A stretch of 64,000 nucleotides of DNA from Euryarchaeota archaeon UBA256 (lineage in GTDB: Archaea > Thermoplasmatota > Poseidoniia > Poseidoniales > Poseidoniaceae), in the NCBI GenBank assembly GCA_002494645.1, contig DACE01000033.1:143024-207023 (forward strand). Direction: 5' to 3'. Of this stretch, positions 28,108 to 32,873 are shown piece by piece. The notes beneath the pieces are model-generated. The model was not told the DNA's origin, did no database searches, and saw only the letters and a list, made by a program, of their open reading frames with translations. Made by a program: the position numbers and the translations under genes. The stretch's first letter is position 1. Each line of letters begins with the position of its first letter.

Positions 28108-29241
28108 TCATTCATCCTCTGAAAACAACATGGTTTGACGTGATGGTGGCGCTTCGAGTTGTCCTAATCTGAAACCAATTAATCGAATCGTTCCCTCGGA
28201 ATCTACACTGTTTGCAAAAAGTGAACTCGCCAATCGCATGAAGACATCAGTTTCATCCATGGCTACAGGGATACTGCGCCCCGTCGTATGGGTTTCAAAC
28301 CCCGTGTAGCGTATTTTCACTTCACCCATTCGGCCTGATACACCCAGTTCCACAGCACGTTTCATCACCGCCTGGACCAATTGTTTGAGGTATTCAAGGA
28401 CTTTTTCATGGTCGTTTTGGTCAGATTCAAACGTGTGTTCCTTACCGATGGACTTGCGACTTCGCAAAGGGCTCACGGTGCTGCTACTTTCTCCCTCAAT
28501 CAAGGCCATGAACCAGTTTGCAAAGCGTTCCCCTGCCAGTCGGGACAAGGTGAGTTCCCCTAATTCATGCACTTCATCGGCAGTAGAATATCCCCACTCG
28601 ACCAATTGGGTTGCACGTTTAGGTCCAATACCTGGAATTTCACGCAGATTACGACCGGTAAAAAAATCCTGAACTTCATCTGGCATGACCCGATAAATAC
28701 CGTGCGGTTTTCTAATCTCGCTGCTCATCTTGGCTAAAATTCGAGTTGGGCCAATCCCGAAAGAGGCAGAGAGATTCAATCGTTCCATGATGCTGATTTG
28801 CAGTTCTCGAGCCAATGCGAGTGCAGCATCCCAATCGCCATCAACGCGTTCGGTTACATCGAGGTATGCTTCATCGATGCTTGCCTGTTCAAAGACATCA
28901 GCCTCCTCACGCAAGATGTCCATCACTTTACGGCTCGCCCTACTGTAGAGTCCACGCGTGCCGCGAATGTACAGGGCTGGTCCAAATGGAGCAGCCGGGC
29001 ACCGACGCCATGCTTCGGAAATAGGCATAGCAGAACGAATCCCATAAACTCGTGCAGCGTAATTACAAGTTGACACTATGCCTCGTCCCCTTCCTTGCTT
29101 TGGGTCTGAACCAATGACCAAGGGTACTTCATCGTCCAATCCGTGATGGAGTGTTTCAACGGCTGCAAAAAATGCATCAAGGTCACAATGCAAAATGATT
29201 CGTTCAATAGAATCATGACCTGTACCACTCAACGTGTTCAC
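28108..29241 (-). CDS. dinB: Y-family DNA polymerase IV (DinB/Dbh/Dpo4 type), catalytic residues intact
   Basis: ILHCDLDAFFAAVE, steric-gate region VSTCNYAAR, SIDEAYLDVT and a HhH segment IPGIGPKRA. Confidence 0.9.
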   Translation of the reverse strand: MNTLSGTGHDSIERIILHCDLDAFFAAVETLHHGLDDEVPLVIGSDPKQGRGRGIVSTCNYAARVYGIRSAMPISEAWRRCPAAPFGPALYIRGTRGLYSRASRKVMDILREEADVFEQASIDEAYLDVTERVDGDWDAALALARELQISIMERLNLSASFGIGPTRILAKMSSEIRKPHGIYRVMPDEVQDFFTGRNLREIPGIGPKRATQLVEWGYSTADEVHELGELTLSRLAGERFANWFMALIEGESSSTVSPLRSRKSIGKEHTFESDQNDHEKVLEYLKQLVQAVMKRAVELGVSGRMGEVKIRYTGFETHTTGRSIPVAMDETDVFMRLASSLFANSVDSEGTIRLIGFRLGQLEAPPSRQTMLFSEDE

Positions 29242-29266: not shown

Positions 29267-29293
29267 TTGAACTTGATGTAAGGTTCAGTTCAA
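29267..29293. promoter_or_regulatory. Inverted repeat TTGAACT-N13-AGTTCAA (with nested TGAAC-N10-GTTCA GTTCA) in the dinB / radB-like divergent spacer; candidate operator
   Basis: Read directly from the sequence. It is the only extended dyad in the 101-nt divergent spacer. No known binding protein is assigned. Confidence 0.25.
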
Positions 29294-29342
29294 GCAAGGG
29301 GTGTTAGAAAGATACGATGACTTCCGATGAAGTCTTCTGTTG

Positions 29343-30140
29343 ATGGAGATGTTAGATGATAGAGGACAAACGTTGCTTGCTGCACAGCGAGCCTTCTCCA
29401 TTGTGGAGCACACTGCGAGCATCAATCTCGCAGATATTCAGCCACAGGCTGGACAAATTTACCATGTCACAGGACCCGGCTTTGCGGGAGATCGTATGCG
29501 CCCCATCGTCGAACAATGGGTTATTCAAGCCATTGAACACGAACAAACTGTGCACTGGATCGATGGTGCTTGCAGAATTAATCCTGCCCGATTCATTCCC
29601 CTTCTTGAACAACATAAACTCCCAATCAACGAGTCCCTCAGCCGAATCTTTCTCAGCAGAGGTTTCACCCTTCACCAATTGGACAGTCAACTCGCCCGCT
29701 TGCCTTCCGAATTAGCGATTACCAAGTCACCTATCGTAGTAGTTGATGGATTGCTCACGATGCACGAAGACGATGCCATTGGAACATTGGAATCCCGAAT
29801 TTTGTTGAGACGGCACATTCATGTCCTCGAACAAATCGCCAAGCAGCGGCAAGTCGCCGTGATTCTCATCACTGGAACTTCATCAGCAAAACGTCACGGG
29901 CGTCGCCTGGATTACATACGCAGGCACGCACAAAATCATCTTGATGGACGAATCGTTCAAAGAAACAGAACTTCGGTTCTTCGCCTCCATCACCCGCGAA
30001 GTGGCCAGTTTGGAATACTCGCAATATCAGCAGAGAATGGACAAACTCGTTTTCGAATGCGTCCATCGGTACGCACCAGTGAAATGGACATCACTTCACC
30101 GCATCTTGGAATTCCGACTGACCAAATTCAAGGAGACTGA
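29343..30140 (+). CDS. RadB/RecA-superfamily paralog with degenerate Walker A (predicted ATPase-inactive)
   Basis: Block-by-block parallel to archaeal RadB. GQIYHVTGPGFAGDR matches the P-loop, but GK[ST] is replaced by GDR. TVHWIDGACRINPARF matches YVDTEGGFSPERL. SPIVVVDGL matches Walker B. LEQIAKQRQVAVILITG matches ARRKNVAVIVVNQ. First ATG at 29343. Confidence 0.6.
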   Translation: MEMLDDRGQTLLAAQRAFSIVEHTASINLADIQPQAGQIYHVTGPGFAGDRMRPIVEQWVIQAIEHEQTVHWIDGACRINPARFIPLLEQHKLPINESLSRIFLSRGFTLHQLDSQLARLPSELAITKSPIVVVDGLLTMHEDDAIGTLESRILLRRHIHVLEQIAKQRQVAVILITGTSSAKRHGRRLDYIRRHAQNHLDGRIVQRNRTSVLRLHHPRSGQFGILAISAENGQTRFRMRPSVRTSEMDITSPHLGIPTDQIQGD

Positions 30141-32547
30141 CCTGCTGACCGGATTGCCGAATCATGGAGGAGGTCCATCCAAAAGGTGCTAGAATGGCCC
30201 AAATAGCTCGCTCCGCTATTGAACTGTAGTGATTCGGGCAAAGTTGGCATGAAGGATGGAGATGGTCGATTTCATCTGCGAGTCGCACTCGCTCCTGAAG
30301 AGGTTCTGCATTATGGCTCACCACGATATACCGAATGGTTGACCCAGGAGGAATTGTAGTTCCTTGTTCTTGTGCCCGAAGAAGAGCCGCATAGGTGAGG
30401 TTTTTGACACGATAACCGTCAAGATCTTTGCTCACACGTCGCGCGATGAGCCCCTGAATTGGTGGAATGTTTCGCTCATAAAGTTGAGATAAGTCACGAC
30501 GGTAGAGGCGAAGGACATCGTGTTGGGCTGAAGGGCCTGGACGTCCATTGATGCGTGTTCCTGCCGAGAGCAAATCCAATGACCGCTGTTGGAGTGAACG
30601 AATCCACGAAGGGGTTGAATGCTGACGCAGTTCAATCCCTCTCACTTTGTACTCTGTTCCGTCAAAAGCCCAATATTTCGTCAACGAACCAGCACCGTGC
30701 ATTCTACTCGGAAGAAAGGCAATGAATTCGTAAAATTGCTCATACTCGAGAGGTATTCCGATTTGGTCCGTGACACGTTGAGCAAACTCCTGTGCTGCCT
30801 TGATTTGAACATCTTTTGGGCGGTTCTTGGAATCGCTTAACCACACACAGTCAACGATTGCATGAAGAACTTCCCAACCTTCCTCTTGAGCCATTTCAAT
30901 CGTTTCCAAAAGAATGTCACGTGACCAAGCACAAATGGCTTCATGTGCCTCAATCCTTCCGAAACGAGCATTACGATATCCAGTATATCCAAAGCATGTG
31001 ACAAGAAGCCATTTCAATGCATTTTGTCGCAAATCAAAGGCGTCACCTTTCGTGATACGTTGGAGTTTTAATTGACGTCGTCGTTCAATGATCGGCGCTA
31101 CGACACGTCCAAGAAAGCCTTGATGACGTCCACAAGTGTGACTGTTAAGGCCGGGTACACCCAATGATTTTTCGTTGGGAAGCGGGAACATTCCATGACC
31201 GAATTCAGTCCGTAGTCGTCGATGGAGGAATTCAGTATGAGCCTTACTTGGCTCAAGTGGGACAAATGCTGCAGCATTCAGAGTTTCAGCAGGTTGACAG
31301 CACGTGCAATTGAGCGTCTCAGGAGAAATGTTTCTGGTTGCGATGATGCTTGGGAAGAGACTTGCAAAATCGAGTTCAATGACGGCAGAATGTACGCCTG
31401 CTTGACTGTCAAGGTAGAGTCCACCCCGGTCCGCATGCAACAACTCAAGTGCTGTTTTTGTATCCTCTGGACGGTTCTTTTTCCAAGGAACCAATACTCC
31501 ATCGTCCATTGCAACACGCATTTGTATGGCACTGATAACCGAACCCGGAGAGAGTCTCGAGATGATTTGAGCAGATTGCCTTGAATGTTGAGCGAGTTCA
31601 AACAAACCAGCAAGACCACCTTCACGAACAATGAAACTGTTAGCGAAATCCAAATGAAGTCGTCCCTTTGCAAAATAAGACCCGTATTTGTGCATTGTTT
31701 GGCCGTAAGAATGAACGGTTCGTTCCTTGGTTGTACGAGAAAGCCTCTCATCGGTTCGACCCAAACGTAAGTGAACAGCATGCAAGGAAGCATGGTGTTC
31801 AAGCGAGGGAAAAAGACGCTGGTCGCCTCCTCGCGTCACAATAATGTCTGGGTCGAAAATGTCAATCTGCTCTTGAATTGCCTCAAGAAATTCTGCCGTT
31901 GATGGAAACGATGAGCGTTGAAGTTGAACCGTATTCAGTACGTTGATCGGGGGCGCCATACCCTGTTCTTGCAACGGTTTTATTGACAGACTGCGGATGG
32001 GATTGAATTCAGATGCAGGTCCATCACCTGATTCAAATTCAAGATTCAATTGAACCACCAAAAAAGGAGGGAAATCTCCGGTATGTTCCGTTGAATCCCT
32101 TACAGGTTGCAGGTGCCCATCCTCAAAGGTCACAGCGTGAAAGGGCACACATCTGTACTCATTGAGAAAACGCTGAGCATGGTGTGCGTCGACAGAGTAA
32201 AGCGAATACATGTGAAACGAACCGCGCGTTTCAATGTGCTCAGCGAGGCCACGTAGAAGACGAGAGCATAATACTTCAACTTCAAGGACATCGCATAAGT
32301 CACTGGTTCCAAGGGTGAGTTGAGCTCGGCGCCATATGCGTTGACCTATGTTGAAACGTTGCATGATTTCTGGTTGTTCCAGCCAATGTTCAAGGCGTTC
32401 AAGCGATGAAGGTGTGCCGTGAACGTGAAGCGTTGGCGCCCAATCAATGTGGCATGAATGGGCGTTTCCATCACGGTCTACCACCCATGCAACCATGCCG
32501 GTTGCTGCATCATTCTCATGCACATCAAGAAGCCAACCTTCAATCAT
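30091..32547 (-). CDS. polB: Divergent family-B DNA polymerase, 3'-5' exonuclease motifs inactivated
   Basis: Collinear with archaeal PolB: MIEGWLLDV start, DPDIIVTRGGDQRLFPSL, GRLHLDF, motif A LDFASLFPSII, motif B KWLLVTCFGY, motif C LHAIVDCV and a C-terminal QVSLLEFG PIP-like box. The first ATG is at 32547; the ORF track's 32574 start is a TTG. Confidence 0.85.
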   Translation of the reverse strand: MIEGWLLDVHENDAATGMVAWVVDRDGNAHSCHIDWAPTLHVHGTPSSLERLEHWLEQPEIMQRFNIGQRIWRRAQLTLGTSDLCDVLEVEVLCSRLLRGLAEHIETRGSFHMYSLYSVDAHHAQRFLNEYRCVPFHAVTFEDGHLQPVRDSTEHTGDFPPFLVVQLNLEFESGDGPASEFNPIRSLSIKPLQEQGMAPPINVLNTVQLQRSSFPSTAEFLEAIQEQIDIFDPDIIVTRGGDQRLFPSLEHHASLHAVHLRLGRTDERLSRTTKERTVHSYGQTMHKYGSYFAKGRLHLDFANSFIVREGGLAGLFELAQHSRQSAQIISRLSPGSVISAIQMRVAMDDGVLVPWKKNRPEDTKTALELLHADRGGLYLDSQAGVHSAVIELDFASLFPSIIATRNISPETLNCTCCQPAETLNAAAFVPLEPSKAHTEFLHRRLRTEFGHGMFPLPNEKSLGVPGLNSHTCGRHQGFLGRVVAPIIERRRQLKLQRITKGDAFDLRQNALKWLLVTCFGYTGYRNARFGRIEAHEAICAWSRDILLETIEMAQEEGWEVLHAIVDCVWLSDSKNRPKDVQIKAAQEFAQRVTDQIGIPLEYEQFYEFIAFLPSRMHGAGSLTKYWAFDGTEYKVRGIELRQHSTPSWIRSLQQRSLDLLSAGTRINGRPGPSAQHDVLRLYRRDLSQLYERNIPPIQGLIARRVSKDLDGYRVKNLTYAALLRAQEQGTTIPPGSTIRYIVVSHNAEPLQERVRLADEIDHLHPSCQLCPNHYSSIAERAIWAILAPFGWTSSMIRQSGQQVSLLEFGQSEFQDAVK

Positions 32548-32824
32548 CGTTCGCCATCTCTTCCAGTGCAGCAACGCGGTTGGATAGGTCGTCGAGACGT
32601 TTCATCAGCCCGATGAGCATGCTGAGAACGACCGGTTGCCATGTATTGTGTGCAGGCAGCATTCCTCCCGCAGACCTCCGCTGACGCACGTCATTGAACA
32701 ACTGATCCAAAAGAACTCGCTCATTGGGTGAAAGAGCCCGATGAAAGGGCATCAAGGCATTCAATTCAGCATCTGCTCTCGTTCGCCATGGTGGCACACT
32801 TCGACCCATACGCCCGTTGTTCAA
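32540..32824 (-). CDS. Small hypothetical protein (94 aa) overlapping the polB start
   Basis: The ATG ORF's stop codon (32540-32542) lies 8 nt inside polB. It has a basic N-terminal half and an amphipathic, acidic C-terminal helix (RLDDLSNRVAALEEMANDD). No recognisable family. Confidence 0.4.
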   Translation of the reverse strand: MNNGRMGRSVPPWRTRADAELNALMPFHRALSPNERVLLDQLFNDVRQRRSAGGMLPAHNTWQPVVLSMLIGLMKRLDDLSNRVAALEEMANDD

Positions 32825-32873
32825 CGGGAGGAAGAGATGCTTTCTCTTGACCCGTTTTGTGAAACTGAAAGTG

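Follow-up and report, generated by a model that had tools for sequence, protein, structure and literature searches.

Introduction

Operons of the archaeal B-family polymerase PolB2 contain arCOG07300 genes together with inactivated RadA-family genes (Makarova 2014, PMC4104785). Timinskas, Timinskas and Venclovas (2025, PMC11791011) named these partners PPB2 and iRadA and described, as an AlphaFold model built in silico, a PolB2:iRadA:PPB2(3) heteropentamer. In their account, the first Asp of the PolB2 DxD motif is substituted, reading IID in S. islandicus, and a D(K/R) motif follows a beta-alpha motif that resembles the Rad51 oligomerization motif and binds iRadA. PPB2 carries an MGRT arm with Arg3 and Arg9, and a clamp-binding motif is found on either iRadA or PolB2 (PMC11791011). 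Genetic work in S. islandicus showed Dpo2/PolB2 to be damage-inducible and required for targeted mutagenesis (PMC11791011, PMC6061795), and dpo2 lies within the regulon of the Sulfolobus damage-response element bound by Orc1-2, 5'-ANTTTC-3' (PMC6061795). Supplementary file 2 of the 2025 study already lists two Poseidonia sp. proteins, MBL6742770 (PPB2) and MBL6742771 (PolB2), in the group "3b PPB2-PolB2-iRadA" (PMC11791011).

Here, we analyze a 64,000-nucleotide stretch of DNA from Euryarchaeota archaeon UBA256 (the window), which holds the whole module of iRadA, PolB2 and PPB2. The iRadA gene and all of its relatives carry only the annotation "hypothetical protein". We assign it with high confidence as iRadA, a RadA/Rad51-core protein that has lost ATPase function and serves as a subunit of the PolB2 translesion "mutasome" of archaea. 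The iRadA-PPB2-PolB2 system has been described before, and the gene's sister ortholog is in the published catalogue; since the iRadA family has been published, no new kind of system is added. We document the identities of the genes, their conserved linkage, the residue changes in iRadA and the selection acting on it.

Fold and family of iRadA

The features of the locus are collected in Table 1. Rad51 is the sole significant Pfam family for iRadA (32 bits, gathering cut-off 22). The NCBIfam RAD51, RadB, RadA and DMC1 models gave weak matches, all far under their cut-offs, with 24.6 bits against 172.4 for the RadB model TIGR02237 (residues 38-202) and 20 bits against 361 for the RadA model (TIGR02236/PRK04301). 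An AlphaFold2 (AF2) model made from 26 homologs shows a confident core (residues 22-228, mostly pLDDT >85) flanked by disordered termini (residues 1-21 and 229-265). The best 50 matches of this model in a Foldseek search of the PDB were all RAD51, RadA or DMC1 ATPase cores (E ~1e-12, probability 1.0), and the best solved-structure sequence match of the family profile was Thermococcus kodakarensis RadB (2cvf, E = 2e-4). The RecA-superfamily membership proposed in a preliminary description of this DNA is thus borne out, while its statement that the protein tracks RadB block by block was too strong: the family is iRadA, a derivative of the RadA/Rad51 core. The core begins at around residue 25, compared with a 344-residue RadA bearing an N-terminal extension in the same genome, which indicates that the HhH domain is absent from iRadA. 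The apparent conservation of the iRadA C-terminus, a disordered tail encoded in the 50-nt convergent overlap with PolB2, may be an antisense shadow of the polymerase gene.

Table 1 Features of the iRadA-PolB2-PPB2 locus, in window coordinates
Feature	Position	Strand	Remarks
DinB / Pol IV	28108..29241	-	Divergent neighbor; syntenic in the Poseidonia-type lineage only; outside the conserved module
Promoter element upstream of iRadA	29284..29311	+	TTCAGTTCAA, then GGGGT, then AGAAAG
iRadA CDS	29343..30140	+	265 aa; RadA/Rad51 ATPase core without the N-terminal HhH domain; sister ortholog in L010 is MBL6742772.1
Walker A remnant GPGFAGDR	29472..29495	+	Residues 44-51; Gly scaffold kept, Lys to Asp, Ser/Thr to Arg
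IDGAC, equivalent of RadA IDTE[DG]	29559..29573	+	Catalytic Glu to Ala; invariant in the family
Walker B strand IVVVD	29733..29747	+	Residues 131-135; Asp kept
ITGTS, aligned to RadA VTNQV	29868..29882	+	Conserved Gln of "TNQ" before loop L2 lost
PolB2 CDS	30091..32547	-	818 aa; start MIEGW at 32547, not TTG at 32574
PIP-like PCNA-binding motif QVSLLEFG	30121..30144	-	Near the PolB2 C-terminus; largely within the 50-nt convergent overlap with iRadA
PolB2 motif C "IVD" (HAIVDCVW)	30850..30858	-	First Asp of DxD replaced, as in S. islandicus "IID"
Invariant ADRGG in PolB2	31420..31434	-	Candidate for the published D(K/R) motif
PPB2 (arCOG07300 / DUF8156) CDS	32540..32809	-	89 aa; starts MGRSVPPWR; 8-nt overlap with the PolB2 start
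Promoter element upstream of PPB2-PolB2	32840..32871	-	CTTTCAGTTTCA, then GGGTC, then AGAAAG

By exact look-up, the PPB2 and iRadA of one related locus (L010) are MBL6742770.1 and MBL6742772.1, respectively. This iRadA is the tree sister of the window's protein, with an identity of 73% in the best BLAST segment and 77% over the tree columns. Since L010 is both the catalogued operon and the sister in the tree, the window's gene is an ortholog of a catalogued iRadA. The protein therefore combines the RadA/Rad51 core fold, the lack of an HhH domain, substituted ATPase residues, adjoining PolB2 and PPB2 genes, and a catalogued ortholog, which together place it in the iRadA family.

The genome (1.79 Mb in 47 contigs, 87% complete), which its relatives place in Poseidonia (Marine Group II, Thermoplasmatota), was searched for other family members. 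It encodes a canonical RadA on contig C13, the 344-residue protein mentioned above, with an intact GEFGSGKTQ P-loop, as the preliminary description had suggested checking. The only further RecA-superfamily match, a weak third hit to Rad51, is a KaiC-like protein of 328 residues with an intact GTCGSGKTT P-loop (G000 C6:134066-134200; L003:889-1875, minus strand), and the search of the genome, at its 87% completeness, turned up no RadB. The identity of iRadA as the RadA recombinase was rejected on its score and on the absence of the HhH domain, Walker A, the catalytic Glu and the pre-L2 Gln, the genuine RadA being encoded on C13. A RadB identity was rejected on its score and on a P-loop reading GPGFAGDR rather than GxxxxGK[ST], and a KaiC reading was rejected as well.

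Active-site residues

The residues of iRadA were compared with RadB (2cvf), Pyrococcus furiosus RadA and the RadA of the same genome by profile alignment (HMM, hhalign). A MAFFT alignment with the same-genome RadA misaligned Walker A, placing SGKTQ under TGPGF, and the HMM and hhalign alignments, the secondary structure of the model and the family consensus were used instead. The hhalign alignments and the PDB profile search of iRadA cover only residues from ~59 onward, so that the Walker A remnant is judged homologous from where it lies in the fold and from the GxxxxGK[ST] consensus that its relatives show. GPGFAGDR sits between a strand (residues 39-44) and a helix (residues 47-65) of the AF2 model, which is the Walker A position, and the relatives read G-x-G-x-x-G-K-[ST] there. 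IVVVD aligns with IIVDS of the same-genome RadA and LVVVD of RadB. Both the altered P-loop and the retained Walker B-like strand of the preliminary description were therefore correctly placed. Two lesions come in addition to those it had listed, namely the replacement of the catalytic Glu by Ala in IDGAC and the loss of the "TNQ" Gln in ITGTS. The ITGTS strand is followed in iRadA by a helix (residues 183-195), where RadA has a longer stretch; we take this to be the loss of loop L2.

With the catalytic Glu changed to Ala and the Gln lost, the iRadA of the window is predicted to be unable to hydrolyze ATP, and the changes of Lys to Asp and Thr to Arg mean that the protein of this lineage probably cannot bind ATP either. 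As iRadA lacks the ATPase residues, yet is under purifying selection (see below), its sequence identifies it as a structural or adaptor subunit and not a recombinase. The earlier reading as a non-catalytic scaffold with a recombinase fold was essentially right, and matches the published iRadA-PPB2-PolB2 mutasome.

PolB2 and PPB2

The PolB2 of the window has the characteristics of the Dpo2 type: another residue stands in place of the first Asp of DxD, the exonuclease domain has degenerated, its Pfam match staying under the cut-off, and the protein is additional to a canonical PolB (905 aa) encoded on contig C23 of the same genome. Its motif region closely resembles that of a Thermoplasmata PolB2 in supplementary file 1 of Timinskas 2025. 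A PCNA-binding-like motif is present on PolB2 and none on iRadA in the window, and the PIP-like pattern of PolB2, [QK]xx[ST]L[LF][DE]F, is kept in most loci. ADRGG is preceded by a nearly invariant stretch, GVLVPWKKNRPEDTKTALELL, which may be the beta-alpha motif reported to bind iRadA; the candidates for this motif and for D(K/R) were picked by conservation alone and not by alignment to the Sulfolobus protein.

The PPB2 of the window is 91% identical to MBL6742770.1, and its AF2 model (pLDDT 88) consists of an N-terminal arm and three helices. The N-terminus follows the pattern MGR[ST]VPxWRxR, in which M1, G2, R3, R9 and R11 are invariant in the orthologs. Its length of ~90 residues, the three helices, the MGRT-type arm with Arg3 and Arg9, and the position directly upstream of PolB2 agree with the published PPB2. 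Orthologs bear the precomputed Pfam label DUF8156, and the window's protein gave no Pfam match in a model set that lacked PF26485 (DUF8156). For both genes the TTG starts of the longest open reading frames are too long (PPB2 32540-32824, PolB2 to 32574), and in L010 an in-frame stop two codons upstream fixes the start of PPB2 at MGRS (32809).

Conservation of the locus

We examined linkage in 80 Poseidoniales loci drawn at species level from GTDB genomes. PolB2 adjoins iRadA convergently in 77 of them, and in the other three the contigs end too early to tell. The PPB2 gene (~89 aa) precedes PolB2 in 71/80 loci. In ~30 of the loci the synteny with the window is confined to these genes, which defines the conserved unit as iRadA> <PolB2 <PPB2. 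In the window, iRadA is convergent with PPB2-PolB2 and overlaps PolB2 by 50 nt, hence it stands outside their operon. DinB adjoins iRadA in 47/80 loci, largely those that also keep ValRS, MMPL and PGDH. The presence of DinB thus tracks this wider synteny, and its link to iRadA is unsupported by conservation. Of the functional connection to both flanking polymerases that had been proposed for the gene, the half concerning PolB2 holds and the half concerning DinB looks like plain synteny; the small upstream ORF encoding PPB2, a conserved partner, was missing from that pairing. Overall, the preliminary interpretation is supported in part.

A distant homolog locus, L092, also has DUF8156 and PolB genes. 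At L092:4771-11951, the iRadA-like protein P0132 (342 aa) has an N-terminal CxxC...CxxC zinc-ribbon-like segment, common to its relatives P0096, P0145 and P0163, and its gene lies directly after canonical RadA and before a 62-aa DUF8156 gene, near a split PolB. A separate group of iRadA-like proteins without a P-loop (P0051-P0078) shares a conserved C-terminal motif, ~SSxQPNGExxAxxARxASG. Two loci bear bacterial labels: L043 (NZEQ01000045.1, "Verrucomicrobiales bacterium") shows the MMPL-ValRS-DinB-iRadA-PolB2 synteny of Poseidoniales, and L025 (CAXHAW010000423.1, "uncultured bacterium"), a short contig, has its DinB-iRadA-PolB2 core. These labels are probably binning or labeling errors.

P-loop retention and selection in Poseidoniales

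The loss of the P-loop Lys is not general in the order. Among 79 Poseidoniales iRadAs, 55 retain the Lys and 53 the Ser/Thr, and the three Gly positions are conserved in 74-78 of the sequences; L011, of the Lys type, reads GPGRSGKS. The Lys is encoded by AAA (31) as well as AAG (24), and at the Gly positions all four codons occur. As synonymous codons are fully mixed, the P-loop is under selection in most Poseidoniales lineages. On the tree of the 79 proteins the Lys has been lost at least 4-6 times. The window's protein alone has Asp at this position, where its sister has Gly, and the Asp-Arg pair at the Lys-Ser/Thr position occurs once among the 79, in the window. Among 95 representatives of wider iRadA-like clusters, only two carry GxxxxGK[ST], both of the Poseidoniales type. 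The catalytic Glu, by comparison, is Ala in every Poseidoniales iRadA. What the family as a whole has lost is the catalytic Glu; the change of Lys to Asp is not family-defining.

Values of dN/dS for iRadA range from 0.09 to 0.21 across comparisons, with lineages that lack the Lys at similar values. For the window and L010 the ratio is 0.12, a rough figure because dS is saturated (1.5). The window's iRadA retains 35/35 family-invariant residues. Together, the kept P-loop and the absent Glu suggest that most Poseidoniales iRadAs bind nucleotide but do not hydrolyze it, and that in the window's genome binding, too, has been lost. Thus, the iRadAs of Poseidoniales may not be uniformly "inactivated". 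The maintenance of the P-loop under selection in most of them, with repeated losses, goes beyond what was described previously (PMC4104785, PMC11791011).

A shared promoter element

A three-part element precedes both transcription units of the module and is conserved across Poseidoniales. It consists of a tandem TT(T)CAnTT(T)CA (that is, ANTTTC twice), followed by GGGGT or GGGTC and by AGAAAG, and its distance to the start codon is nearly fixed (~56 nt for iRadA and ~61 nt for PPB2). The strict pattern was found in 34/49 upstream regions of iRadA and 38/71 of PPB2, against a background of 0.007 per 116 nt, and the upstream regions scored as element-free carry close variants. The element is also present upstream of iRadA in lineages with different synteny. 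Only four intergenic copies occur in the whole genome, which are those of iRadA and PPB2, one upstream of an ORF on contig C16 and one orphan site. The sharing of this element supports a joint regulation of iRadA and PPB2-PolB2, although they are encoded on opposite strands, and is an observation not contained in the earlier studies (PMC4104785, PMC11791011). The ANTTTC-like part resembles the Orc1-2 damage-response element of Sulfolobus, and a link to DNA damage may exist. Two Orc1/Cdc6 genes are present in the genome (C7:48239 and C6:103500), neither of which adjoins the iRadA locus.

The C16 copy (TTTCACTTTCAC...GGGGTC...GAAAAG; L096:4110-4175, corresponding to G000 C16 ~30110-30174, minus strand) is the only other clean intergenic one. 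The ORF that follows it (187 aa, beta-propeller-like) comes after a 102-aa ORF and a TFB gene, and may belong to the same regulon as iRadA and PPB2-PolB2. In the spacer between dinB and iRadA there is also a dyad, TTGAACT-N13-AGTTCAA (29267-29293), whose right arm falls within the iRadA promoter element. Read towards dinB, the left arm is likewise AGTTCAA, so dinB may share a half-site.

Discussion

Three other explanations of the gene were weighed. It could be an ortholog of RadB, the euryarchaeal RadA paralog, that has lost its P-loop and mediates recombination independently of the polymerases, as might be thought from the 2cvf match of the family profile and the weak TIGR02237 match. However, the RadB model reaches only 24.6 bits where 172 are required, the RAD51 and RadA models score equal to it or above, the gene keeps strict linkage with PolB2 and PPB2, and an ortholog is catalogued within a PolB2 operon; we regard a RadB ortholog as extremely improbable. 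Relaxed selection is a second consideration, under which iRadA would be decaying towards a pseudogene in the window's lineage and the loss of Lys and Thr would be a symptom. iRadA indeed evolves faster than any other gene of the locus (identity with L010 of 73%, compared with 79-96% for its neighbors), its clade sits on a long branch (0.56), and no other sequence among the 79 has Asp in place of the Lys. Yet the reading frame is intact with every family-invariant residue in place, the dN/dS against L010 is low and similar in other lineages without the Lys, and the promoter element is conserved, all of which makes decay very unlikely.

The remaining alternative concerns the partners, with iRadA as a common adaptor for DinB and PolB2 in a single translesion hub. 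The divergent orientation of dinB across a spacer of 101 nt, and the dyad within this spacer that reaches into the iRadA promoter element, would fit such an arrangement. Against this, the 47 loci with an adjoining DinB mostly keep ValRS, MMPL and PGDH as well and look like plain synteny, in other lineages iRadA-PolB2-PPB2 moves without dinB, and a contact between iRadA and DinB has neither published nor computed support. We consider a shared hub unlikely and retain the assignment of the gene as the iRadA of a PolB2 mutasome.

Following the published model, one PolB2, one iRadA and a trimer of PPB2 would form a heteropentamer. PolB2 would dock on iRadA via a loop that mimics the Rad51/RadA oligomerization motif, with iRadA held by this loop as a non-enzymatic subunit, and the MGRT arm of one PPB2 would be inserted between PolB2 and iRadA, near the DNA. 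Recruitment to PCNA would here proceed via the PolB2 tail, and the mutasome would extend distorted primer termini during damage tolerance. By analogy with the published systems, the Poseidoniales proteins may likewise be expected to form a complex, to act in translesion synthesis and to be induced by DNA damage. The correct naming of these genes would give abundant, heavily UV-exposed archaea of the surface ocean a dedicated B-family translesion complex besides DinB.

The retained P-loops bear on a possible regulation of the mutasome's recombinase-like subunit by nucleotide, and the promoter element bears on the wiring of the DNA-damage response in archaea outside Sulfolobales. In a reading that is possible but doubtful, the iRadA of most Poseidoniales species, with Walker A and the Walker B Asp kept under purifying selection and the catalytic Glu gone, binds nucleotide without hydrolyzing it and so gates the mutasome, as ATP gates RecA in Pol V Mut. 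Lineages would then have given up this switch at least 4-6 times, that of the window's genome by the change of Lys to Asp. Separately, the genes of the mutasome may be co-regulated through the ANTTTC-like element. If true, the cis-code of an Orc1-2-type damage response would extend from Sulfolobales to marine planktonic Thermoplasmatota.

Among known proteins, RadB (TIGR02237) is similar to iRadA in being a short RadA paralog without the N-terminal domain and with a similar order of blocks. It differs in keeping Walker A and the catalytic Glu and in not being linked to PolB2, and iRadA scores far under the RadB cut-off. ImuA, of the bacterial ImuA-ImuB-DnaE2 cassette, is likewise a RecA-fold accessory of a mutagenic polymerase. 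Taxon, partners and lineage are different, however, making the two analogous and not members of the same family; ImuA was rejected as an identity for the gene, since no ImuA model was among the Pfam and NCBIfam matches and the neighbors are PolB2 and PPB2 rather than imuB and dnaE2.

The published iRadA family (arCOG07763 / 04294 / 08101; S. islandicus WP_012710852) shows the same core without the N-terminal domain and the same substitution of ATPase residues. As in the window, its members are encoded with PPB2 and PolB2, and the gene order here is that of the published group "3b". The window is distinguished by the convergent arrangement of iRadA with PolB2, including the 50-nt overlap, and by a clamp motif located on PolB2. 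The state of the P-loop also varies: wider relatives are without any, most Poseidoniales keep GK[ST], and the window has Asp-Arg. The mutasome as a whole resembles the E. coli Pol V mutasome (UmuD'2C-RecA-ATP), where a RecA-superfamily protomer also sits on a translesion polymerase through an oligomerization-like motif and the N-terminal arm of a small subunit is inserted near the active site (PMC11791011). Pol V, however, uses the active, ATP-bound housekeeping RecA with a Y-family polymerase, whereas the PolB2 mutasome pairs a dedicated inactive paralog with a B-family enzyme.
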